Positions 25,555 through 60,789 of a DNA stretch of 64,000 bases are shown piece by piece. The notes under the pieces were generated by a model. That model saw only the letters and a list, made by a program, of their open reading frames with translations. It searched no databases and was not told where the DNA came from. Every line of letters starts with the position of its first letter. Positions within the stretch are counted from its first letter, which is position 1. The position numbers and the translations under genes were made by a program. This DNA comes from an uncultured Desulfovibrio sp. (lineage in GTDB: Bacteria; Desulfobacterota; Desulfovibrionia; Desulfovibrionales; Desulfovibrionaceae), in assembly GCA_949291675.1 (NCBI GenBank), contig CASEWR010000009.1, forward strand, positions 35,310 through 99,309, written 5' to 3'.

Positions 25555-25568
25555 GTGCAACTTTGCAC
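25555..25568. promoter_or_regulatory. palindrome GTGCAA-CT-TTGCAC upstream of rubrerythrin (candidate operator)
   Basis: A perfect 6-2-6 inverted repeat lies 50 nt upstream of ATG 25618. Confidence 0.25.
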
Positions 25569-25617
25569 GAACAACATTTGTGAACACAATACCCTTTGTG
25601 AGGAGAGGTTTCCAGTT

Positions 25618-26109
25618 ATGAGCAAGACCGAAAAGAATCTGATGGACGCTTTTGCAGGTGAGAGCCAGGCCAACCGCAAGTACCTTGCCTATGCCAAGGT
25701 CGCAGACAAGGAAGGCAAGGCCCAGATTGCCAAGCTGTTCCGCGCCGCTGCCGAGGCCGAGACCATTCATGCCCATGGCCATCTGCGCAATGCCGGCAAA
25801 ATCGGCGACACCGCTGCCAACCTGCAGGACGCTCTGGCTGGTGAAACCTACGAATTCACCAAGATGTATCCTGACATGATCAAGGACGCCAAGGAAGAAG
25901 GCAACGAGAAGGTGGCCAGGTACTTCGACTTCGTCAACAAGGTCGAAGAAGTGCATGCCAACCTCTACAAGAAGGCCATCGAAGGCGCCAGCGCCTTTGC
26001 CGGCGACTACTACATCTGCCCTGTGTGCGGCTACACCCATGAAGGTCCCCTCGATGGTCCCTGTCCTGTGTGCGGTGCCAAGGGTTCCACCTTCTACACC
26101 GTTGGCTAA
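25618..26109 (+). CDS. rubrerythrin
   Basis: It has an N-terminal di-iron four-helix motif (ESQANRKY, EAETIHAH, E..EF) and a C-terminal rubredoxin-like CPVCG...CPVCG. AGGAGAG lies upstream. Confidence 0.9.
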   Translation: MSKTEKNLMDAFAGESQANRKYLAYAKVADKEGKAQIAKLFRAAAEAETIHAHGHLRNAGKIGDTAANLQDALAGETYEFTKMYPDMIKDAKEEGNEKVARYFDFVNKVEEVHANLYKKAIEGASAFAGDYYICPVCGYTHEGPLDGPCPVCGAKGSTFYTVG

Positions 26110-26229
26110 CAGCCCGATGTCCGGCCGGGCCTGATGGCCCGGACTCATATATCAGGGAGTGTTTCCGGTTTGTCCCGGGAGCGCTCCCTCTTGTTGTCTG
26201 GCGGGGCTGAAGGCTCTGTTGCCATTGTC

Positions 26230-26322
26230 CCTTGTCATTTCCCCGTGTCATTGCCTCTTGTCATTGCCTCGTGTCATTGTTCCCCTGGTATTGCCCATTG
26301 TCATTGCCAGGTGTTTTGCCAG
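26230..26322. repeat. 13-bp tandem repeat KTGTCATTGCCYC x7
   Basis: TGTCAT-like cores occur at 26233, 26246, 26259, 26272, 26286, 26299 and 26312. Confidence 0.8.
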
Positions 26323-26428
26323 TACTTCTGCCTGCTGTCCGCTTCTGCCCTGCCTTTTGTCGTTGCCATTTGCCGGGAAAAGAGGCACGATGCGGCATCA
26401 TTTTTCGGGGTTTTCGGAGGATACGTCC

Positions 26429-27781
26429 ATGCAACACCGCCTTGCAGGGTTTTGTCTGACCCTGCTGCTTGTCAGCTGCTGCGGCTGCAGTATGCCCGTT
26501 CCTGCAGGGGCTCAGCCCGCAGACACAAAGCAGACCGGGAGCGAGGAAAAACAGCAGCCATTGAGCAAGTTCGACGCCCTGCGCCGCTTTGGCCAGGTCC
26601 TCGACATTGTTGAGCGCTCCTATGTGAACGACATCGGCCAGGCAGAGCTTGTCAACGGCGCCATCAAGGGAATGCTGCAGGGACTGGATCCCCATTCCTC
26701 CTTCATGAGTGCCGATGAATACAAGGAGATGCAGGAGACCACATCCGGCGAGTTCTTCGGCATTGGCGTGGAAATCGCCATGGAGAACGGCCAGGTGACC
26801 GTAGTGGCCCCCATTGAGGACACGCCTGCCTTCAATGCCGGCATGAAGACCGGGGACATCATCCTGACCATTGACGGCAAGTCCACCCAGGAAATGACCC
26901 TGCAGGACGTGGTGTCGCGCATTCGCGGTCCCAAGGACACCAAGGTGGAGCTCTCCATCCTGCACACCAATGGCAAGGAGCCTGTGCATCTGAGCATTGT
27001 GCGCGGCGCCATTCCCATCATCAGCGTCAAGAGCAAGAAGCTTGAGGACGGCTACTACTGGGTCCGCCTCACCCGCTTCTCGGAAAAGACCACGGACGAG
27101 CTCATCGAAGCAGTGGCCGAGGCAAAGAAGGACGCCGGCAAGGGCGGCATCAAGGGCATTGTCCTTGATTTGCGCAACAACCCCGGCGGTCTGCTCAGCC
27201 AGGCAGTGAGCGTCTCAGACCTCTTTTTGCAGAAGGGCACCATTGTTTCCATCAAGGGCAGAAGCAATGTGACCGAGCGCGTCTATACAGCCTCCATCCA
27301 GGGCACGGATGTGGAAGCCCCCATGGTGGTGCTGATCAATGCCGGCTCTGCCTCTGCCTCGGAAATCGTGGCCGGTGCCCTGAAGGATCAGCACAGGGCC
27401 CTCATTGTGGGCGAGCGCTCCTTCGGCAAGGGCTCGGTGCAGAACATCATTCCCCTTGCTGACGGCTCGGGTCTCAAGCTGACTGTGGCCCTCTATTACA
27501 CGCCTGACAACAAGTCCATTCAGGCAGAGGGTGTCAGCCCTGATGTGGAGATTCCCTTTGAGAAGCCCTCGGACAACGACAAGGAAAACCGTTTCCTGCT
27601 GCGCGAGGCTGATCTGAACCGCCACCTGGAAAACAGCACCAGCACTGGCGGAGAAAAGAACAGTGCCAGCCAGGCTGAAGACAAACAGGTGAAGGAACAG
27701 CTTGCCAGAGACAATCAGCTGCGCATGGCCCTGCAGCTTGTGAAGGGACTGCCCAGCATGCAGGCCATCAAAAACAGGTAA
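26429..27781 (+). CDS. S41 carboxyl-terminal processing protease (Ctp/Prc-like) with PDZ domain
   Basis: It has a signal/lipobox-like start (MQHRLAGFCLTLLLVSCCGC), PDZ (GDIILTIDG), and S41 motifs (DLRNNPGG, GSASASEI, SFGKGSVQ). GGAGGA lies 7 nt before ATG 26429. Confidence 0.85.
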   Translation: MQHRLAGFCLTLLLVSCCGCSMPVPAGAQPADTKQTGSEEKQQPLSKFDALRRFGQVLDIVERSYVNDIGQAELVNGAIKGMLQGLDPHSSFMSADEYKEMQETTSGEFFGIGVEIAMENGQVTVVAPIEDTPAFNAGMKTGDIILTIDGKSTQEMTLQDVVSRIRGPKDTKVELSILHTNGKEPVHLSIVRGAIPIISVKSKKLEDGYYWVRLTRFSEKTTDELIEAVAEAKKDAGKGGIKGIVLDLRNNPGGLLSQAVSVSDLFLQKGTIVSIKGRSNVTERVYTASIQGTDVEAPMVVLINAGSASASEIVAGALKDQHRALIVGERSFGKGSVQNIIPLADGSGLKLTVALYYTPDNKSIQAEGVSPDVEIPFEKPSDNDKENRFLLREADLNRHLENSTSTGGEKNSASQAEDKQVKEQLARDNQLRMALQLVKGLPSMQAIKNR

Positions 27782-27831: not shown

Positions 27832-27896
27832 TCTACCCGAATTTTTTCCGGGACATTTCCGGGACATCCCCGGATTTTTCCCGCAAGGAGGAAACA

Positions 27897-28697
27897 ATGG
27901 CAGAGCTTTCAGTGGGCGTGCTCGGCTGCGGCAATATGGGCGGCGCCATTCTCAAGGGCCTGGCTGCAACAGGCAGGTACCGTCTCTATGGCTGGACCAG
28001 GACCATGTCGCGTCTGGACCCGCTGCTTGCAATGGGTGTGGAAGCTGCCAAAAGCGCCAGTGATCTTGTGGAAAAGAGCGCTGTGCTCATCCTGGGGGTA
28101 AAGCCCTATCAGATTGTGGATGTGCTGCAGAGCCTGGACCAGAAACTTCTGGCAGGCAAAATCCTTGTCTCCATTGCTGCAGGCACAAGCCTCAAGACCC
28201 TGAAGAAGGCTTGTGACGGCCAGTGCACCGTTGTCCGCTGCATGCCCAACACCCCCGCCATGGTGAGCCGCGGCGTCTTTGCCCTCTGCTTTGACAAGAA
28301 GGCAGACGCAGAGGAGAAGGCATGCGTGCAGGCCATCTTCTCCGAGCTCGGCCTGTGCGTTGAGCTTGCCGAGAGTCAGTTCACAGCTTTCTCGGCCCTT
28401 ATCGGCGCAGGGCCTGCCTATGTCTTTGACCTTATGGAAGGTCTGGTCATGGCTGGCGTGACCCTGGGCTTCTCCCATGCCGCAAGCCGCAGCATGGTGG
28501 CAGAGCTCTTTGCCGGCTGCGCCAAGATGGCTGCCGAGAACCCCACAGAGCACCTCATGGCCATGCGTGACAATGTCTGCTCCCCTGCAGGCCTGACCAT
28601 TGCCGGTGTCAATGCCATGAACGAGGAGGGCCTTTCCGCAAAGCTCGGCAGAGCAGTGCTCAAGGCCAATAAACGCGGCAGGGAGATGGAGGACTAA
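27897..28697 (+). CDS. proC: pyrroline-5-carboxylate reductase
   Basis: It has the Rossmann motif VGVLGCGNMGGAI and the C-terminal P5CR signature (SPAGLTIAG). AAGGAGGA lies upstream of ATG 27897. Confidence 0.9.
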   Translation: MAELSVGVLGCGNMGGAILKGLAATGRYRLYGWTRTMSRLDPLLAMGVEAAKSASDLVEKSAVLILGVKPYQIVDVLQSLDQKLLAGKILVSIAAGTSLKTLKKACDGQCTVVRCMPNTPAMVSRGVFALCFDKKADAEEKACVQAIFSELGLCVELAESQFTAFSALIGAGPAYVFDLMEGLVMAGVTLGFSHAASRSMVAELFAGCAKMAAENPTEHLMAMRDNVCSPAGLTIAGVNAMNEEGLSAKLGRAVLKANKRGREMED

Positions 28698-28733
28698 GGA
28701 CGTCTCCTGCCTTTTCCCGGTTTCGTGCACATA

Positions 28734-28772
28734 CAGAACAGCCCCGGAGCAGCGTGCTTCGGGGCTGTTCTG
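28734..28772. terminator. hairpin between convergent proC and EBP genes
   Basis: CAGAACAGCCCCG ... CGGGGCTGTTCTG, a 13-bp stem. Confidence 0.5.
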
Positions 28773-28835
28773 CATTCAGAAATGTGCACAACGCGGGCAT
28801 GACTGTTCAGCACTGAGTCAGGCCCTGGCCAGGTC

Positions 28836-31763
28836 TTACACTGAACCGGGCAGCTGTGCGCCCTGCCTGAGCAGGTAGCGCTGGCTCGGTCCCTTGCCCT
28901 TGCGCTCAAGCAGACCGTCTTCCACAAAGACCTGCAGGTCATACTGGGCAGTGCGCGCCGAGACACCGGCAAGCTCCTGATAGTCCTTGCGGCTGAACTC
29001 GCCTGCTGCCTGCACAGCGGCGAAGATGCGCTCCAGTCTGGCATAGCTGGAGGTCTCTCTGGCACCAGGCGCCTTGCTTCTGGCGGATGTTGCAGGCTCT
29101 GCAGCACGTTGCTCTGCCTGACTGACTGTGTCAGGCAGGGCAGATGCAGCAGGCTCTGACTGTGCCGCAGCCTGGGCAGCGCGGTCGAATCCGCCGGCGG
29201 CAGTGTCGGCAGGAGCTGTGTCTGCAGGCACAGGGAGCATGCCGGCCACAGCGTCAGCCCGGGGTGCGGGAATGGCAGGGGGCATGGCCTGGCTTCCTGT
29301 ACCGGCCTGGCTGGCAGCCCTGGCAGGTTCCCCGGCTGCGGACACTGCTGCATCGGCCTGTGCCGCATTGTTGTTTGTCGCGTCCGGCTGTGTCGCAGCG
29401 GGCTTTGCCGCACCGTTTCGCGGCGCGTCCGGTTTTGCTGCACCAGGTTTTGCTGCACCGGGCTTTGCTGCACCGGACTTTGCTGCACCGGCCCTGGGCG
29501 CATCAGCCACGGGGATGGGCGTGTTCATCCTTCCCTGGTCTCTGGCCTGTTCGCGCAGCAAGGTCTTGGTGTCTGCAGCGCCCTGATCTGCGCCGAGCTG
29601 GAGATGATGGGGCAGGATGATGTCGCCGTCACAGAAGGCTGCTGTTCTGAAGATGGTATTGCTCAGCTCGCGCACATTGCCGGGCCAGTGATAGTGCATG
29701 AGGCGGCTCAGGGCACCCTTGCTCAGGCCCGGAATGGGGCGGGTGGCGTGTGACTGTTCGTGTGCCTGGCGCAGGAAGAAGAGGGCAAGATAGGGAATGT
29801 CCATCTTATGCTCGCGCAGGGGCACAGTATGAATGGTAATTACAGCCAGGCGGAAGTAGAGGTCCTCCCGGAAGGTCCCCTTCTGGATCTCCTCGCGCAG
29901 CTCGGCATTGGTTGCTGCAATGACCCTGGTATTGAAGGGGATGCTGGTATCCGAGCCAAGCGGGGTGATGCGCCGGTCAGAGAGGGCGCGCAGCAGGGCC
30001 TGCTGCACCTTGGGCGAGGCGTTGCCGACCTCGTCCAGCATGAGCGTGCCGCCCTCGGCAGTGAGGAAGGCGCCCTTGCGGCTGTCTCTGGCTTCCGAGA
30101 AGGCCCCCTTCACATGGCCAAAGAGGCTGTCCATGAGCAGACTTTCATCCAGGGCACCGCAGTTGATGGTCATGAAGGGGCCGTCTTTGTGGGCAGAGTG
30201 CATGTGGATGGCCCGGCTCACCAGTTCCTTGCCTGTGCCTGTCTCACCCATGACCAGGACATCGGCCTGCACCATGGCTGCCTGCAGGATATTCTGGCGC
30301 AGCGTGCGTATCTCGCTGCTCACCCCGATGATGCCATCCGGGGGAACGGGAATGTCGCCTGGCAGGTTGTGGGCTTCCTCAACCTCGATGCGTGCCGAGG
30401 TCAGGGTGTTCTCCATGTCGCGCTCATCCTCAAGCATGCGCAACTGTTCCAGGAGCTTGTTGACCTCGGTGCGCACCTCGCACACTTCCTTCGGCGCACT
30501 GCGCTCTGGCAGCGGTTTGGCCAGGGCCGAGGCGCCTGCCTCGGCAATGTCTCTGCGCAGGTAGTGCAGGGTTTTGCGCAGGGCTATGCCTGTGCAGAAC
30601 ATGGCCAGAGCGAGGAAGAAGACGGCTGCAGCACAGGCAATGAGATAGTGTCTGAGCATGAGGGAGCGCTGGTTGGTGGCTGCCAGGGAGGTATCCAGCA
30701 CCACAATGCCGCCCACCACGTCCGTGCGCCCCGCAGCGCCTGATGTATAGAGCACAGGCGCATAGCTGACTGTCTCCACGGGCAGGCCTTCCTTGTTCCA
30801 GGGCGTCTTGCTTGTCTGGAACTGGCCGGCTTCCTTTTTCTGGATATGATTCATCATGGTCCAGTAGGAGTAATAGTCGCCGCCCGGGCGGAAGCCCTGG
30901 GGGTAGCCGGCCCTGCCGAAATCACCCTGGAAGCCCGAGCGCACGCTGTCTATGGCTGCGGGCTGCTCTGCACTGCCCTGCTTCGTGTTGGTCTCGAAGA
31001 TCATCCAGCCGGCACTGTCCACAAAGAAGGCAGGGGGCGGAGCCAGGTCATTGCGCATGGAAATCGCGCAACGGGAGGTGACCTCGCACAGCCAGTCAAG
31101 GTCTATGGAGAGGATCAAATATCCCGCAAAGTCCCCGTTGCCCAGGGTGACAGGCGTTGTAAAGCGCATGAGCTGCACAGTCAGCTGGGTCTGGGAGGTT
31201 GTATTGTCAGGGTCAGTAAAGGAATAGGAGACCTCGGTGGGAATGGAGAGCGAGACTTCGTGCTCTTCGGGCTGGCGCAGGGGCAGATGGAAGGGGGAGG
31301 AGGGCTGCACGTCCGTGAGTTCCGGGGAGATGGAGCGCATTTTGCCCTTGTCCTGTATCCACAGGAAGCGTTTGCCTGCCTGGGCTCCGAGGCCCAGGAA
31401 GGCTGCCTCGCAGAATCGCGCATCGCCCATGGAATTGAGGATCTCCAGCCTGCGCCAGATGCGATGTTCGAATTCCTGGAAGGAGGTGGAGCCTGTGGCA
31501 AGAGTCACAATCTGATTGCGCGTTTCCTGAAGGGTCTGGGAAAGCGCAATACCCATGCTCTGGGAGAGGATATAGGAGTTTTGCGCGATAGCATTTGCCA
31601 GATTCTCCTCGACATTTTTGTGCGTGATCGCGAAAAGCGCAATCATGATAGCGAGGGGAACTGGCAGGCAGAAAAGCATAAGTCTGCGTACCAGGCCGGC
31701 ATTATTCCAGAAATGCGGCCTTGAAACGCGAAACTGCCGGGGGGAAAAGTGCAAATCAGCCAT
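28836..31763 (-). CDS. atypical sigma-54-dependent activator: N-terminal membrane-bounded sensor, AAA+ core, long Ala/Pro-rich linker, C-terminal winged-helix-like domain
   Basis: It has two TM segments flanking a ~330-aa extracytoplasmic region, GETGTGKE, a GAFSEA loop, and WPGNVRELSN. A ~175-aa low-complexity linker follows (29055-29579), and the C-terminus reads SRKDYQELAGVSARTAQYDLQVFVEDGLLERKGKG. Confidence 0.85.
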   Translation of the reverse strand: MADLHFSPRQFRVSRPHFWNNAGLVRRLMLFCLPVPLAIMIALFAITHKNVEENLANAIAQNSYILSQSMGIALSQTLQETRNQIVTLATGSTSFQEFEHRIWRRLEILNSMGDARFCEAAFLGLGAQAGKRFLWIQDKGKMRSISPELTDVQPSSPFHLPLRQPEEHEVSLSIPTEVSYSFTDPDNTTSQTQLTVQLMRFTTPVTLGNGDFAGYLILSIDLDWLCEVTSRCAISMRNDLAPPPAFFVDSAGWMIFETNTKQGSAEQPAAIDSVRSGFQGDFGRAGYPQGFRPGGDYYSYWTMMNHIQKKEAGQFQTSKTPWNKEGLPVETVSYAPVLYTSGAAGRTDVVGGIVVLDTSLAATNQRSLMLRHYLIACAAAVFFLALAMFCTGIALRKTLHYLRRDIAEAGASALAKPLPERSAPKEVCEVRTEVNKLLEQLRMLEDERDMENTLTSARIEVEEAHNLPGDIPVPPDGIIGVSSEIRTLRQNILQAAMVQADVLVMGETGTGKELVSRAIHMHSAHKDGPFMTINCGALDESLLMDSLFGHVKGAFSEARDSRKGAFLTAEGGTLMLDEVGNASPKVQQALLRALSDRRITPLGSDTSIPFNTRVIAATNAELREEIQKGTFREDLYFRLAVITIHTVPLREHKMDIPYLALFFLRQAHEQSHATRPIPGLSKGALSRLMHYHWPGNVRELSNTIFRTAAFCDGDIILPHHLQLGADQGAADTKTLLREQARDQGRMNTPIPVADAPRAGAAKSGAAKPGAAKPGAAKPDAPRNGAAKPAATQPDATNNNAAQADAAVSAAGEPARAASQAGTGSQAMPPAIPAPRADAVAGMLPVPADTAPADTAAGGFDRAAQAAAQSEPAASALPDTVSQAEQRAAEPATSARSKAPGARETSSYARLERIFAAVQAAGEFSRKDYQELAGVSARTAQYDLQVFVEDGLLERKGKGPSQRYLLRQGAQLPGSV
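29401..29490. repeat. 15-bp in-frame tandem repeat x6 encoding GAAKP-type pentapeptides (inside EBP linker)
   Basis: The sequence reads ggctttgccgcaccg / ... / ggttttgctgcacca / ggttttgctgcaccg / ggctttgctgcaccg / gactttgctgcaccg. Confidence 0.8.
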
Positions 31764-31870
31764 GACGCAACGCTCCACAAAGGTCTGTAGCAGTAAAATA
31801 GCACTGGAACAGGGATTTTGCAACTTTTTTCACAAGGTACCGGGGCCCTGGATGAAATCTGTGTGAGAAA

Positions 31871-31900
31871 AATCACGCATTATCGCGCAAAATCGCGCAA
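31871..31900 (+). promoter_or_regulatory. three phased 10-bp direct repeats (AATCACGCAT TATCGCGCAA AATCGCGCAA) abutting the -24 element
   Basis: The repeats are read directly from the sequence. The same ATCGCGCAA motif recurs at 40109-40314. Confidence 0.4.
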
Positions 31901-31915
31901 TGGCACGGAATATGC
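31901..31915 (+). promoter_or_regulatory. sigma-54 (-24/-12) promoter
   Basis: TGGCACGGAATATGC matches the consensus TGGCAC-N5-TTGC at 14/15 positions with correct GG/GC spacing. It lies 98 nt upstream of ATG 32013 and is divergent from an EBP gene. Confidence 0.6.
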
Positions 31916-32012
31916 TTCTTCCGGGGCGTGGCTTTTTTGCGAAATTTGTGCGCACTCACCGAACTTCAGGCATTGCGCCCAAGTCTCAGAACGATTTGAC
32001 AAGGAGAGAGTC

Positions 32013-32327
32013 ATGACGAAGCTGAGAAAACTTTCACTGAGAATTTCAGCGTGGTTTGTTGGCTGTTTCGCAACACTGTTGCTGATAGCCCCCGGTCTGG
32101 CCCTGGCTGCCAAGAAGGAAGCAGCCAACGTGGTCATCGTCGCTGATACCAGACGCCTCGACGGCATCCTGCTGTGGTGGGCCCAGATGTACAACGACAG
32201 CCATCTGTACTTCATGATCCTGACGATCATCATCATTCCGATCACCGGTTGTGTGTTTGGTATGCTGGCTGACCTGGTCATGAATCACATCGGCATCGAC
32301 CTCAAGCACAGAAAAGCTGCCGAATAG
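32013..32327 (+). CDS. small membrane protein (104 aa), unknown function
   Basis: AAGGAGAG lies upstream of the ATG. It has a signal/TM segment (WFVGCFATLLLIAPGLALA) and a second TM (YFMILTIIIIPITGCVFGMLADLV). Confidence 0.7.
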   Translation: MTKLRKLSLRISAWFVGCFATLLLIAPGLALAAKKEAANVVIVADTRRLDGILLWWAQMYNDSHLYFMILTIIIIPITGCVFGMLADLVMNHIGIDLKHRKAAE

Positions 32328-32338
32328 GGAGGTACATT

Positions 32339-33400
32339 ATGGACTGGTTGTATGTATTGATGCCCATTTCCGGCTGCACCGTCTTCTGGCCCGGTCTCAT
32401 CATCCTGGGTCTTGGTGTCGGCATCATCGGCGGTTTCTTCGGTATGGGTGGTGCCTGGATGGTTACCCCCGGTCTGAACATCCTTGGTTTCCCCATGGCC
32501 TTCGCCATCGGTACTGACGTTGCGCACATGGCCGGTAAATCCCTCATCTCCACCATGCGTCACGGCCGTTTCGGTAACGTTGACTACAAGCTCGGTCTGA
32601 CCATGCTTGTCGGTACCGTCGTCGGCGTGGAAATCGGCGCTCAGATCGTCATGCAGCTGGAACGTCTCGGCAGCGTTGACCAGGTTGTCCGCTGGCTGTA
32701 CGTCGTCCTGCTCATCCTCCTTGCCTGGATGGTGTTCCATGACATCGCCCTGCGCAAGAAGAAGGAACGTGAAGCTGCTGCCAAGGGTGAAGCCCTTGAC
32801 GAAAAGGCCACCGGTCTTGACTGGGCCACCAAGCTGCACGCCATCAAGATTCCCCCGATGGTCCACTTCCATCAGGCCGGCATCTACTGCTCCGCATGGC
32901 TCCCCATCGGCGTGTCCTTCCTCACTGGCGTTCTCGCCGGTATCCTCGGCATCGGCGGCGGCCTCATTCGTATGCCCGCCCTGGTCTACCTGGTTGGCTG
33001 CCCGACCCACATCGCAGTCGGTACTGACCTCTTTGAAGTGGCCATCTCCGGCCTGTATGGCGCTGCCACCTACACCCTGAAGGGTCGTACTGAACTCGTG
33101 GCCGCCCTCATCATGCTCGTCGGTGCTGCCGTCGGCGCCCAGATTGGCGCAGTCGCCACCAAGTACATCAAGGGCTACGGCATCCGCACCGCCTTCGGTC
33201 TGGCTGTTATCGGCTGCCTCTGCTCCGTCGTCCTCAAGCTCATCCAGCCCTACTTCCCCAACTACGCCGGTTTCATCAATGGCGTGGCTACCGTGGTCGT
33301 GCTCGGCTTCGTGACCGCCATCTCTGTGTACATCGCTGCCAAGATGGTCCATGGCGCCAAGCAGGAACTTGCTGAAAAGAAGCGCGCTGCCCAGAACTAA
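32339..33400 (+). CDS. TauE/SafE-family (DUF81) permease, long form with inserted cytoplasmic loop
   Basis: It has duplicated 4-TM halves with GGFFGMGG / GILGIGGG motifs and a charged loop (KKKEREAAAKGE). GGGAGG lies upstream. Confidence 0.85.
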   Translation: MDWLYVLMPISGCTVFWPGLIILGLGVGIIGGFFGMGGAWMVTPGLNILGFPMAFAIGTDVAHMAGKSLISTMRHGRFGNVDYKLGLTMLVGTVVGVEIGAQIVMQLERLGSVDQVVRWLYVVLLILLAWMVFHDIALRKKKEREAAAKGEALDEKATGLDWATKLHAIKIPPMVHFHQAGIYCSAWLPIGVSFLTGVLAGILGIGGGLIRMPALVYLVGCPTHIAVGTDLFEVAISGLYGAATYTLKGRTELVAALIMLVGAAVGAQIGAVATKYIKGYGIRTAFGLAVIGCLCSVVLKLIQPYFPNYAGFINGVATVVVLGFVTAISVYIAAKMVHGAKQELAEKKRAAQN

Positions 33401-33414
33401 CTGAGGAGGACACC

Positions 33415-33999
33415 ATGAGAACATACTACAAGATTCTGGCATTGTTCGTCCTCTGCCTCGGACTGGCAGCATGTGGCGACTTCGGACAGGTTGAACAGGG
33501 CCGCTGCGTGGCCTACGACGCCAGCAAACAGACCTTTACCCTGGTCCTGGATGTCAATCACGATGTGAACAATCCCTCCTACACCGGTGGTGTCATTCAG
33601 TACACCATGCCCGCTGACCCCGAAGAAATCGGTCCTGAGCCCACTGCCGGCGGCCGCGTGCAGATCAACACCGAGAAGAGCGAAGTCATCATCTACAGAG
33701 ATGGCAAGCTTGAGACCGTGAAGGTCGAGTTCACCGACATTCAGAAGAACATCAAGCCCTCCAACCCCAAGGTCAAGGGTCAGAAGTTCCCCATTATCGA
33801 CAAGGATAACGGCACCATCACAGAGTACTCCAGACGTCTGAGCGAAATCGTGACCTTCAAGGTTCCCGCCGAGTACCTCGACCTGCCCCCGAGCACCTGG
33901 GAAGCCGGTGACGAATGCCGCATCTACTACAAGGAAAATGCCAAGCATCAGGCTCTGCGTTTCATGAACGTGAGCAAGACCAACATCTTCAAGAAGTAG
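33415..33999 (+). CDS. lipoprotein of unknown function (resembles DUF4881-type proteins from memory; needs an HMM check)
   Basis: It has the lipobox LGLAAC. GAGGAGGA lies upstream of the ATG. The product is 194 aa. Confidence 0.7.
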   Translation: MRTYYKILALFVLCLGLAACGDFGQVEQGRCVAYDASKQTFTLVLDVNHDVNNPSYTGGVIQYTMPADPEEIGPEPTAGGRVQINTEKSEVIIYRDGKLETVKVEFTDIQKNIKPSNPKVKGQKFPIIDKDNGTITEYSRRLSEIVTFKVPAEYLDLPPSTWEAGDECRIYYKENAKHQALRFMNVSKTNIFKK

Positions 34000-34129
34000 T
34001 AAAATCCAGTACGCCTTGAAGCATCCCCTCCGGGGCCCCGCCTGCGGGGCCCCATGGAGAGGGGGGAAGTATGAAAGCAGTGCATGCTTGCGGTGAAGAG
34101 ACAGAGTGTACGGAAGAGGAGAAGAGCAG

Positions 34130-34471
34130 ATGAGACGGAACGACACAGACAATCAGTACAAGAGAACCATCTGGTTGTGCGCCATCAGGGTGGCTGCCAA
34201 TGTGGTTATGCTGGCTGCCGTGTGCCTGGCCATGTATCAGTCCTACTTGAACCCCGCTTCCTCTCTTTCTGTCTTCTGTCAGTACTTCTTTGGCATCAGT
34301 ATCGTCACCTGGATGCTGGCAAAGTTTGCCTGTTCCACTGTTCGTAAAATCTATGCAGACGCAGATGAAGGACTTGTACGCCTGCCGGGTCACAAGAAAG
34401 CAATGCTTGTGCACTGGAAGGTAGCCGAATCATCTCTGTATGTGCAGAGACCTTCGCAGATAGTACTGTAA
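34130..34471 (+). CDS. small membrane protein (113 aa), unknown function
   Basis: GAGGAG lies 8 nt before ATG 34130. It has two hydrophobic helices. The ORF is open from 34106. Confidence 0.5.
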   Translation: MRRNDTDNQYKRTIWLCAIRVAANVVMLAAVCLAMYQSYLNPASSLSVFCQYFFGISIVTWMLAKFACSTVRKIYADADEGLVRLPGHKKAMLVHWKVAESSLYVQRPSQIVL

Positions 34472-34679
34472 CAGGCCTGTCCAGGACCAGTGTACGGCCA
34501 GCTCACAGGCAGCTGCGCTCGTCTTTTACACGAACATATTCCACACGACCATTCCTTGCCTGTCAGCACCTCCTGCCTGCGGGCCGGGAATGCGTCTTTC
34601 GAGGTGCTGCCCAGCCCCCGCCTTTACATCCTGCGCGGTCAGGATTTGCCGGACAGCACCCCGCACAACTCTCCATAGA

Positions 34680-35075
34680 GACACCCTTCCCGATACCGGA
34701 ACCCCTTGCCCGTGTTCAGGGAAGGGTGTCACCCCCAGAGACGGCAGCAGGCGACATCGTCGCAGCGCCAGGGACATATCTCCACAAAGGGCACCCTTCC
34801 CGATACCGGAACCCCTTGCCCGTGTTCAGGGAAGGGTGCCAGACCCCAAGGGCAGCAGGCGAGATAGTCGCAGCGCCAGGGGCACACTTCTCCACAAAGG
34901 CATCCTTTCCGAAACGCGGAACCCCTTGCCCGCCTTTTGGAAAGGATGTCACTTTTCAGGCCAGGACCTGCCACAGGCCCTTCGGCGACACACTGAAGGC
35001 ACGTCCCCCCGCGCATGACACCCGTTGCTTTTCCGGACCCCCTTGCCCGGACTTGTAACGGGTGTCTCCATTTTT
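34680..35075 (+). repeat. tandem array of four ~110-bp structured units (candidate multi-hairpin ncRNA or REP-like element)
   Basis: The hairpin arms are 34680-34691/34719-34730, 34790-34801/34829-34840, 34899-34910/34939-34950 and 35017-35026/35057-35066. The loop core CGGAACCCCTTGCCCG is conserved. A T-run at 35071-35075 follows the last hairpin. Confidence 0.8.
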
Positions 35076-58469: not shown

Positions 58470-58484
58470 TGGCACAAGTCTTGC
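58470..58484 (+). promoter_or_regulatory. sigma-54 (-24/-12) promoter for the GS-III gene
   Basis: TGGCACAAGTCTTGC is a perfect TGGCAC-N5-TTGC. It lies 131 nt upstream of ATG 58615. Confidence 0.75.
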
Positions 58485-58614
58485 TATACCCCTTTGCGGA
58501 GTGCGGAGCGCACAATCCTGCAAAGGAGCGCTCCTTCCCCCGCGGAGCCCGAGGCTCCTTTGCAGTACAGTTTATGCAGCCCTGTCCACAATCAGGACTG
58601 TTCGGGAGTAGAGC

Positions 58615-60789
58615 ATGACAACGCCACGAGCACAGGCTGTTTTTGCGGCCGTGAGCGAAGCACCCGTCACGGGCAGCCTCGCCAAAAGCACAGACGAAAT
58701 TTTCGGTGAATACGTCTTCACCCTGGATGAAATGCGCAAGCGCCTGCCCAAGGACGTGTTCAAGAACCTCGAGCGCATTATCCACAGCGGCGGCCGTCTT
58801 GATCCTGCCATGGCAGACAGCGTTGCTGCAGCCATGAAGGAGTGGGCCATCTCCAAAGGCGCCACCCACTATACGCACTGGTTCCAGCCCATGACCGGCA
58901 CCACAGCTGAAAAGCATGATGCCTTCATCTCTCCCATGGGCGACGGCAAGGCCATCTGCGACTTCTCCGGCAAGATGCTCATCAGCGGCGAGCCTGATGC
59001 TTCTTCCTTCCCGTCCGGTGGTATCCGCTCCACCTTCGAGGCCCGCGGCTACACAGCCTGGGACCCGTCCGTTCCGGTCTTCATCATCCCCGGACCCTAT
59101 TCTTCCACGCTGCACGTTCCCACCTTCTTTTACTCCTATTCCGGTGAGGCGCTGGATCGCAAGATTCCTCTGATCCGCTCCATTGCAGCCCTCTCCAAAC
59201 AGGCTTTGCGCATCCTGCGCCTCTTCGGCAATGAGAAGGCCACCAGCGTGCAGGCGTCCGTTGGTCCTGAGCAGGAATACTTCCTGGTCGACAAGAACCT
59301 GGCCATCCTGCGTCCCGACCTCATGCTCTGCGGCAGAACCCTGCTCGGTGCTCCCTCTCCCAAGGGACAGGAACTTGAGGACCACTACTTCGGTGCCATT
59401 CCTGCCAGAGTGCAGAGCTTCATGGAAGACGTGGAAAACGAGCTCATCCGCCTCGGCATCCCTGCCAAGACCCGTCACAATGAAGTGGCTCCCGGACAGT
59501 TCGAGATTGCTCCTGTCTACGAGGACGCCAACATGGCCTGTGACCACAACATGCTCACCATGAACATGATGCGGCACATGGCAGCCCGCCACGGCTTTGT
59601 CTGCCTGCTCCATGAAAAGCCCTTTGCAGGCGTGAACGGCTCGGGCAAGCACAATAACTGGTCCATTTGCGACAACGAAGGCAACAATCTGCTCAATCCC
59701 GGCTCCACACCCAGGGATAATGCCCAGTTCCTTGTCTTCCTGGCAGCAGTGCTCAGGGCAGTGCACAAGCATGCCGTGGCCCTGCGCCTCGGCACCATCG
59801 GTGCCGGCAATGACCATCGTCTCGGCGCCAACGAGGCCCCGCCGGCCATTATCTCCGTCTACCTCGGCGAGCAGCTCAACGAGGTCATCGAGAGCATCAT
59901 CACCGGCGAGCCCATGCACAGCCACAAGGCCGGCTCCATGGAAATCGGTGTCTCCTCACTGCCGCCGCTGCCCGTGGACCTGTCCGACCGCAACCGCACC
60001 AGCCCCTTTGCCTTCACAGGCAACAAGTTCGAGTTCCGCGCCGTGGGCTCCTCGCAGTCCATTGCTCCGGTCAACATTGCCCTGAACGCCGCAGTGGCCT
60101 GCGCCCTTGACGACATCGCCACCCAGCTCGAAGCCGCAGTGGCTGCAGGCGCAAGCCTCAACCAGGCCCTGCAGGAATTCCTGCCCCGCGAATTCAAGGA
60201 ACACATGCCGGTCATCTTCAACGGCAACGGCTACTCTGAAGCCTGGACCGAAGAAGCTGCCCGCCGCGGTCTGCCCAACCTCAACAACACTGTGGACGCA
60301 CTTGAGCGCTACTCTGACCCCGAGGTCATGAACGTCTTTTTGCGCCATGGCATCCTGAGCGAGCGGGAAATGCTCTCCCGTCAGGACATTCTCCTTGATG
60401 CCTACGGCAAGGCCATTGTCCTTGAAGGCCATGTGCTGAGCGACCTCATCCTCTCCCGTGTCCTTCCCGTCTGCAAGGAAGCCGTGAAGCTCGATGCAGA
60501 CCTTGCCGCAAGCCTGCGCGCAGCAGGCCTGGATGCAGCAGGCGAGCTGAAGGCCCTTGCCGTCAAGCGTGACCACACCCTGGCTCTGGACAGCCTGGTT
60601 GCCAGGCTTGACGCAGCCATTGCCAGCGTCACGGCAAAGGACGACGTGCTTGTGCGCGCCCGCGCAGCCAGGGACGAAATCCTGCCTGTCATGGCAGAGA
60701 TCAGGACCCATGCCGACGCCATGGAACGTTTGTGCGACGACGCTGCCTGGCCGCTTCCCAAGTATTCTGAACTGCTCTGGATCCACTAG
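58615..60789 (+). CDS. glnN: type III glutamine synthetase
   Basis: The product is 724 aa. It has a GS-III-type N-terminus (IFGEYVFTLDEMRKRLPKDVFK) and a GS catalytic core (NGSGKHNNWS). Confidence 0.9.
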   Translation: MTTPRAQAVFAAVSEAPVTGSLAKSTDEIFGEYVFTLDEMRKRLPKDVFKNLERIIHSGGRLDPAMADSVAAAMKEWAISKGATHYTHWFQPMTGTTAEKHDAFISPMGDGKAICDFSGKMLISGEPDASSFPSGGIRSTFEARGYTAWDPSVPVFIIPGPYSSTLHVPTFFYSYSGEALDRKIPLIRSIAALSKQALRILRLFGNEKATSVQASVGPEQEYFLVDKNLAILRPDLMLCGRTLLGAPSPKGQELEDHYFGAIPARVQSFMEDVENELIRLGIPAKTRHNEVAPGQFEIAPVYEDANMACDHNMLTMNMMRHMAARHGFVCLLHEKPFAGVNGSGKHNNWSICDNEGNNLLNPGSTPRDNAQFLVFLAAVLRAVHKHAVALRLGTIGAGNDHRLGANEAPPAIISVYLGEQLNEVIESIITGEPMHSHKAGSMEIGVSSLPPLPVDLSDRNRTSPFAFTGNKFEFRAVGSSQSIAPVNIALNAAVACALDDIATQLEAAVAAGASLNQALQEFLPREFKEHMPVIFNGNGYSEAWTEEAARRGLPNLNNTVDALERYSDPEVMNVFLRHGILSEREMLSRQDILLDAYGKAIVLEGHVLSDLILSRVLPVCKEAVKLDADLAASLRAAGLDAAGELKALAVKRDHTLALDSLVARLDAAIASVTAKDDVLVRARAARDEILPVMAEIRTHADAMERLCDDAAWPLPKYSELLWIH

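Follow-up and report, generated by a model that had tools for sequence, protein, structure and literature searches.

Textbook sigma-54 activators are soluble, carry a Fis-type helix-turn-helix (HTH) and bind remote enhancers. The closest described system to the gene considered here is DVU0151 of Desulfovibrio vulgaris Hildenborough, the sole bacterial enhancer-binding protein (EBP) among 37 in that organism without an annotated Fis HTH (Kazakov et al., 2015; PMC4641369). The same study reported that its orthologs (DvMF_2340, Dde_0697, Dbac_2039, Ddes_1643, and DESPIG_02989) match the winged-helix model SSF46785 in a region conserved across the group, that DVU0151 has a GAFSEA loop, listed as an activity-compatible variant, together with a long unknown N-terminal sensor, and that it is predicted to control the divergent sigma-54 operon DVU0150-0146, whose products are two hypothetical proteins, one of them a membrane protein, as well as a TSUP transporter and two lipoproteins. 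In syntrophic co-culture, expression of DVU0145-0150 goes up (PMC4265775). Here, we describe a gene of this family in a 64,000-nucleotide stretch of DNA, hereafter the window, from an uncultured Desulfovibrio sp. (contig CASEWR010000009.1). The gene lies on the minus strand at 28836..31763, encodes 975 amino acids, and is a member of the family whose unusual DNA-binding domain (DBD) was already reported computationally in 2015.

We believe it likely that the window protein is the DVU0151 ortholog, a one-component, membrane-anchored EBP whose C-terminal winged HTH (wHTH) would bind direct repeats upstream of the divergent sigma-54 operon and activate it. The family departs from the textbook in three ways: it is anchored in the membrane, its sensor is a dCache domain in the periplasm, and its DBD is a winged helix held on a long disordered tether. 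A preliminary description of the window, made from the sequence alone, had called this combination unusual, which it is, and by implication new, which it is not given the 2015 report. To that report we add a dCache fold for the sensor, a DIP2311-C/MarR-like fold for the DBD, and a more sharply defined operator motif. We also find that EBPs of other architectures end in the same winged helix.

A membrane-anchored regulator of the DVU0151 family

The reading frame spans 28836..31823 on the minus strand if read from the first TTG. The ATG at 31763 was chosen as the start because the MxxLHFSPR N-termini of the orthologs agree with it; the stop codon occupies 28836-28838. From its N-terminus the protein comprises a first transmembrane (TM) helix (residues ~28-46; 31626..31682), a periplasmic sensor (~47-372; 30648..31625), a second TM helix (~373-395; 30579..30647), cytoplasmic signalling helices (~396-477; 30333..30578), a sigma-54 interaction AAA+ domain with its lid (478-732; 29568..30332), an Ala/Pro-rich low-complexity linker (725-905; 29049..29591), and a winged helix of ~65 residues (908-965; 28869..29042), all encoded on the minus strand.

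The preliminary description had placed an extracytoplasmic sensor of ~330 residues between two TM helices, and this layout holds. Kyte-Doolittle peaks at ~28-46 and 373-395, both helical in an AlphaFold2 (AF2) model, enclose ~325 residues. The model, which covers residues 1-471, has a mean predicted local distance difference test (pLDDT) score of 73 overall and of ~90 in the core, and its order of secondary structure fits a dCache domain, that is, a long N-terminal helix bearing two PAS-like alpha/beta modules in tandem. Foldseek matched it to the dCache ligand-binding domains of TlpA, TlpC, MkcA, and HK1S-Z8 (E 4e-9 to 1e-7, with TlpA the best at 4e-9), with target-normalised template modelling (TM) scores of 0.6-0.68 against double-Cache domains. 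Pfam dCache_1 matches the window protein below threshold and the orthologs P0071 and P0079 more strongly. Judged from the model, therefore, the sensor is predicted to adopt the dCache fold, a small addition to the unknown sensing domain of the 2015 paper. It shares a double-Cache fold between two TM helices with the chemoreceptor and histidine-kinase domains of TlpA, TlpC, PctD, and HK1S-Z8, albeit at 10-15% identity. In contrast to these comparators, it has a 34-residue low-confidence insert (261-294) in the membrane-proximal module, and its output is an AAA+ transcription activator rather than a methyl-accepting chemotaxis protein or kinase module. Downstream of the sensor the model contains long helices at 359-412 and 425-462, a region in which the relatives P0198 and P0155 have Pfam HAMP matches at the equivalent site.

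The sigma-54 AAA+ core named in the preliminary description is borne out by Pfam, with Sigma54_activat (PF00158) covering residues 478-645 at E 9e-59 and AAA_lid_14 following at 650-732. The Walker A motif GETGTGKE and the LMLDE motif are present, and the sigma-54 contact loop reads GAFSEA, a variant of GAFTGA that takes the form GA[FY][TS]EA family-wide. NCBIfam matches (NifA, NorR, RtcR, and others) are confined to this core and fall far under every equivalog cut-off. By its AAA+ core, its loop and a cognate promoter the window protein is a predicted bacterial EBP, and it would be expected to activate transcription in an ATP-dependent manner. With canonical EBPs of the NtrC, NifA, and PspF types it shares the Sigma54_activat core, the Walker A and B motifs, a GAFTGA-type loop, the order sensor-AAA+-DBD, and a -24/-12 target. 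It differs from them in ending in a winged helix instead of HTH_8, in its far longer disordered linker between AAA+ domain and DBD, and in being anchored in the membrane with a periplasmic dCache domain, whereas those proteins have cytoplasmic REC, GAF, or PAS domains.

Loci of the family were collected by scanning one genome per species with a profile of the C-terminal 72 amino acids (profile A2). The scan gave 109 loci, 80 of which were kept; save for a few contigs from bins assigned to other taxa they belong to the Desulfovibrionales, among them Desulfovibrio, Desulfomicrobium, Humidesulfovibrio, and Desulfocurvus. The nearest genome relative, L001, is another uncultured Desulfovibrio, with 65% identity, and the D. 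piger ortholog is 44% identical over sensor and AAA+ domain (723 amino acids) and 50% over the wHTH. Kazakov et al., 2015 (PMC4641369) predicted the binding sites TTTTTCGCGCAAAA at -166 in D. desulfuricans and GTTTGCGCAAGCGG at -170 of DESPIG_02990 in D. piger. Our locus L012, D. piger ATCC 29098, holds the exact 14-mer GTTTGCGCAAGCGG at exactly -170 and L013 holds the D. desulfuricans-type site at -166, and the family recovered here is therefore tied to the published orthologous group. The DVU0151 group and the window protein have in common a one-component EBP with a long N-terminal sensor, a GAFSEA-type loop, a winged helix without a Fis HTH, a divergent sigma-54 operon for a small membrane protein, a TSUP transporter and lipoproteins, and a TTTTTCGCGCAAAA-like motif upstream of it. 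The window is unlike the rest of the group in having the longest linker, a lineage-specific GAAKP repeat, and operator copies consolidated into three phased repeats at the -24 element.

The C-terminal winged helix and its tether

In place of the Fis HTH, the preliminary description had proposed a winged helix for the C-terminus. No HTH_8 (PF02954) was detected in the window protein by Pfam at E<=1, NCBIfam likewise gave no Fis HTH, and PF02954 was found in none of 16 full-length relatives. The C-terminal Pfam matches, at residues 912-966, are to winged-helix families and are weak and sub-threshold (DIP2311-like_C, E 0.002; HTH_20, E 0.055). In an alignment of 15 orthologs the linker could not be aligned, while the last ~65 residues are conserved with the consensus RLxRLLPxLRxxGEFSRxxYQxLAGVSMRTAQYDLQELxxxGxxERxGKGPSQRY; the C-terminal sequence quoted in the preliminary description is indeed there, and no other part of the C-terminal third is as well conserved. 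Within it, the third, recognition helix carries S-x-RTA-x-YDL, in which R, T, A, Y, D, and L are invariant in 15/15.

AF2 run on the alignment gave a model with pLDDT 88.8 and the classic winged-helix topology H1-b-H2-H3-b-hairpin (helices at 5-17, 22-29, and 33-45 of the domain, strands at 49-52 and 59-62). The top Foldseek match in the PDB is the C-terminal wHTH of DIP2311 (3lmm), with a TM score of 0.72 and a root-mean-square deviation of 1.7 Å over 60 residues; AspA-DNA, MarR, ArsR, and CadC appear among the later matches, and ESCRT-II is also listed. A PDB sequence search with the last 114 amino acids was uninformative, its sole match being a designed repeat protein (E 0.05). On the basis of the model, the C-terminal domain is predicted to be a winged helix and a Fis HTH is excluded, as the preliminary description had supposed. 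It has the same fold as the DIP2311 C-terminal wHTH (PF22168, DIP2311-like_C) and the winged helices of DeoR, MarR, and ArsR, although its identity to DIP2311 is 23% and its PF22168 match is weak. The setting differs as well, since the window wHTH sits on an EBP whereas the others sit on the other part of DIP2311 or on a ligand-binding repressor core. We take DIP2311 to be of the Schlafen/AlbA_2 class; if so, the likeness to the wHTH of Fic/Schlafen-type regulators noted in the preliminary description fits. The conserved recognition helix, together with a motif that co-occurs with the gene, suggests that the wHTH binds DNA sequence-specifically.

The long low-complexity linker, first placed at 29055-29579, extends over 181 residues, of which 32% are Ala and 12% Pro. 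Linker lengths across 78 family members range from 24 to 178 amino acids (median 61), the window's being the longest, and neither length nor sequence is conserved. Inside the linker, Tandem Repeats Finder detected an in-frame 15-bp unit encoding GAAK[SP] (29434..29491, minus strand; 3.9 copies, 93% matches). The preliminary description had counted six GAAKP repeats; the in-frame repeat is real, but six clean units are not, as the peptide GAAKS-GAAKP-GAAKP-GAAKP-DAPRN-GAAKP consists of four contiguous units, one separated and one degenerate. The repeat is missing in P0002, a relative with 83% identity, and on comparison of the sequences is apparently a lineage-specific expansion. The linker as a whole looks like a freely drifting spacer. 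We considered the long linker as an adaptation to a promoter-adjacent operator and rejected this, as linker length is uncorrelated with motif position (Spearman -0.19, p 0.17 for the nearest motif; 0.12, p 0.39 for the farthest). Linker length does not account for site geometry because proteins with linkers of 24-25 amino acids also have a site abutting the -24 element.

The winged helix is found beyond this architecture. A word-indexed search with the wHTH profile gave nearly only short fragments and was replaced by an exhaustive profile search with local hidden Markov model classification, which yielded 2105 representative proteins at E<=0.001, 114 of them at E<=1e-10. Among the best 150 matches, 36 have the full sensor-AAA+-wHTH order and most others are fragments. 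Complete proteins of other kinds include P0064 (L083; 509 amino acids), a REC-AAA+-wHTH protein, P0198 (L081/L082; 481 amino acids), with HAMP-AAA+-wHTH, and P0141, P0167, and P0179 (L084), in which the AAA+ domain is followed by two tandem wHTHs. TPR-wHTH proteins carry the same wHTH profile, and P0082 and P0099 are also among the proteins with other architectures. Replacement of the Fis HTH by a winged helix is thus not limited to the DVU0151 group, because complete proteins of other EBP architectures end in it, and the sequences suggest a broader, unnamed class of wHTH-EBPs. A literature search for general surveys of non-Fis DBDs in EBPs found nothing relevant.

The divergent operon and its control region

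The operon divergent from the regulator begins with the gene for a small membrane protein of 104 amino acids (32013..32327, plus strand, as are those that follow), the DVU0150 counterpart, which is conserved in 68 loci. It continues with a TauE/SafE (TSUP) transporter of 353 amino acids (32339..33400; PF01925, E 1e-44), the DVU0149 counterpart, with 72-95% identity in 65 loci, and a DUF4881 lipoprotein of 194 amino acids (33415..33999; PF16222, E 8e-63), the counterpart of DVU0148/0147. A conserved membrane protein of 121 amino acids without a family match comes last (34106..34471) and is found in 40 loci. The set of small membrane protein, TauE, and DUF4881 genes is divergent from the regulator in 64-68 of the 80 loci.

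A sigma-54 promoter, TGGCACGGAATATGCT, with GG at -24 and GC at -12, lies at 31901..31916 on the plus strand, 113 nt upstream of the operon ATG. Of 68 orthologous intergenic regions, 53 have a corresponding -24/-12 element on the operon strand at a distance of 60-125 nt from the ATG. Across the window the sigma-54 pattern is unenriched (60 found, 65 expected), and because the count is not above chance the promoter call rests on position and conservation. A scan of 28600-34700 for sigma-70 promoters and terminators found nothing above chance. A hairpin with a T-run (TATGCTTCTTCCGGGGCGTG GCTTTTTT; 31911-31930, plus strand) overlaps both the predicted start of transcription and the -12 element; it may be a chance occurrence, since the scan gave 7 sites of this kind in 6 kb where 3.9 were expected. 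The last ~35 nt of the leader (31980-32012; GTCTCAGAAC.GATTTGACAAGGAGAGAGTC before the ATG) are near-identical in the window, L001, L005, and L009, whose regulators are only 50-65% identical, a conservation that exceeds the need of a ribosome-binding site alone.

Immediately upstream of the promoter, at 31870..31900 on the plus strand, are three 10-bp-phased direct repeats, AAATCACGCA, TTATCGCGCA, and AAATCGCGCA plus A, a candidate wHTH operator that abuts the -24 element and runs into the TGG of the promoter; ATCGCGCAA occurs there twice, together with one variant. The window's closest relatives, L001, L005, and L009, have two such repeats at the same place. GCGCAA is present in 31 of 42 dereplicated upstream regions, where shuffling gave a mean of 1.2 and a maximum of 5, and it is strand-biased; the extended form of the motif is TCGCGCAA(A/T). 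Copies cluster right at the -24 element and again 60-115 nt farther upstream.

The divergent intergenic region also contains a CRP/FNR-type palindrome, TTGCAACTTTTTTCACAA, at 31818..31835, which came to light by pattern enrichment: TTGNNA-N6-TNNCAA occurs in 10 of 69 orthologous intergenic regions against 0.4 by shuffling. The identical 18-mer is shared by six loci, namely the window, L001, L004, L005, L007, and L009. Judging from this pattern, it is probably the site of an additional regulator. The palindrome is consistent with the published prediction of Ddes_1642/1643, which are repressed by nitric oxide, as targets in the HcpR1 regulon (PMC5701242).

Alternatives, a working model and the wider locus

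The long reading frame could be an artefact, an error in the repetitive linker having joined a truncated EBP to what is really an independent small wHTH regulator. The low complexity of the linker and its 15-bp repeat are in keeping with such an error, as are the many short database proteins (36-250 amino acids) that match the wHTH profile. However, one continuous frame runs across AAA+ domain, linker, and wHTH in 72 of the 80 loci; seven of the other eight are cut by a contig end, and L041 has only a 208-amino-acid frame. Nearly every untruncated locus holds a single frame of ~830-1080 amino acids with Walker A, the GA[FY][TS]EA loop and the C-terminal domain, with linkers as short as 24 residues. 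The proteins that join the wHTH to an AAA+ match but lack the N-terminal sensor, 35 of the best 150 profile matches, mostly look like contig-end fragments, because most are short and their AAA+ match begins in the first few residues. Furthermore, 28745-29668 is spanned gap-free by contigs from four public runs, which come from three studies; repeat variants in these assemblies are in-frame substitutions such as S763P and A766P, and no repeat-number polymorphism or frameshift in the 15-bp repeat was seen in the assembled contigs of the four runs, from which rare variants would escape. The identical 975-amino-acid protein is present in a second source, and the runs containing the window sequence include bird, gut, and feces metagenomes. 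Given that independent assemblies are gap-free and that the orthologous loci hold the same single frame, we reject the fusion artefact against which the preliminary description had cautioned, as far as sequence data allow, and regard it as extremely improbable.

A further explanation accepts the protein as it stands and assigns the wHTH to protein-protein contact or oligomerisation, with sigma-54 activated from the membrane without enhancer binding, as in the DBD-less FlgR and CtcC. Winged helices can mediate protein contacts, and ESCRT-II, the sub-threshold Pfam matches and the unusual nearness of the candidate operator to the promoter can all be read in this way. Yet the recognition helix is the most conserved stretch, the closest structures (DIP2311-C, DNA-bound AspA, MarR, and ArsR) are DNA-binding wHTHs, and throughout the order the gene is accompanied by a motif that is strongly enriched and strand-biased, so that we consider an interaction module improbable. 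Alternatively, the TCGCGCAA repeats may belong to another regulator or to an extended promoter, the wHTH recognising a different site. The conserved CRP/FNR-type palindrome in the same region and the HcpR1 prediction for the nitric oxide-repressed Ddes_1642/1643 lend this some weight, and the sites predicted by Kazakov et al. are low in information content and inconsistent in position. Against it, the motif is the only strongly enriched word common to all clades with the regulator, its arrangement in the window's clade, as two to three direct repeats recurring every 10 bp, suits a multimeric activator, and the palindrome is limited to one clade; we give this reading a small chance of being correct.

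Several observations weigh against our preferred reading, that of an EBP whose wHTH acts on the repeats to activate the operon. The -12 element of the promoter reads TATGC, not TTGC, and the candidate operator, directly at -24, is atypically close for an enhancer. Because the repeats would overlap the expected footprint of the sigma-54 holoenzyme, they might have a role in repression or autoregulation instead, or be the site of another protein. Orthology to DVU0151 is argued from the D. piger- and D. desulfuricans-type loci and from shared features, DVU0151 itself being compared by description. Finally, the literature matching the locus tags DVU0145-DVU0151, Dde_0697, DvMF_2340, Ddes_1643, and DESPIG_02989, which consists of the 2015 regulome analysis, a single-cell reverse-transcription quantitative PCR expression study, and an RNA-seq study, contains no report of DNA binding or activation; to that extent the preliminary description was right to call the combination untested.

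Based on these observations, we propose a model for the DVU0151-type regulator of the window. The periplasmic dCache domain would sense a small molecule, and the signal would pass through the second TM helix and the HAMP-like helical segment to switch on the sigma-54 AAA+ ATPase with its GAFSEA loop. A flexible Ala/Pro-rich tether of freely evolving length would join this ATPase to the wHTH, which, in place of a Fis-type HTH, would bind the TCGCGCAA-type repeats beside the divergent promoter. ATP hydrolysis would then remodel the sigma-54 holoenzyme at 31901-31916 and turn on the operon, giving rise to the small membrane protein, the TSUP/TauE transporter, the DUF4881 lipoprotein, and the 121-amino-acid protein. 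It is conceivable, if doubtful, that this amounts to a distinct mode of activation, in which the AAA+ ring is tethered to the membrane, a leashed wHTH holds repeats touching -24, and no DNA looping takes place, with a wider wHTH-EBP class hinted at by the other architectures. If the ligand of the sensor and the substrate of the transporter were identified, it would become clearer how sulfate reducers, gut Desulfovibrio among them, perceive their environment. The value of the window gene lies mainly in its being a well-defined candidate for the first biochemical test of a family flagged in 2015.

The neighbours downstream of the regulator are ordinary housekeeping genes. They encode a rubrerythrin (25555-26109), a PDZ-containing C-terminal processing peptidase of family S41 (26159-27781), and pyrroline-5-carboxylate reductase (proC; 27894-28697), the last of which converges with the regulator in 12 related loci. 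On the other side, just downstream of the operon, a noncoding 110-bp tandem repeat (2.4 copies, 86% matches) at 34670-34932 is covered by spurious reading frames on both strands. Elsewhere in the window, TGGCAC-N5-TTGCW has one perfect match, TGGCACAAGTCTTGCT, at 58470-58485 on the plus strand. It lies ~130 nt upstream of a frame of 724 amino acids (58615-60789, plus strand) that, by reading alone, resembles a type III glutamine synthetase, an enzyme well known as a sigma-54 target.

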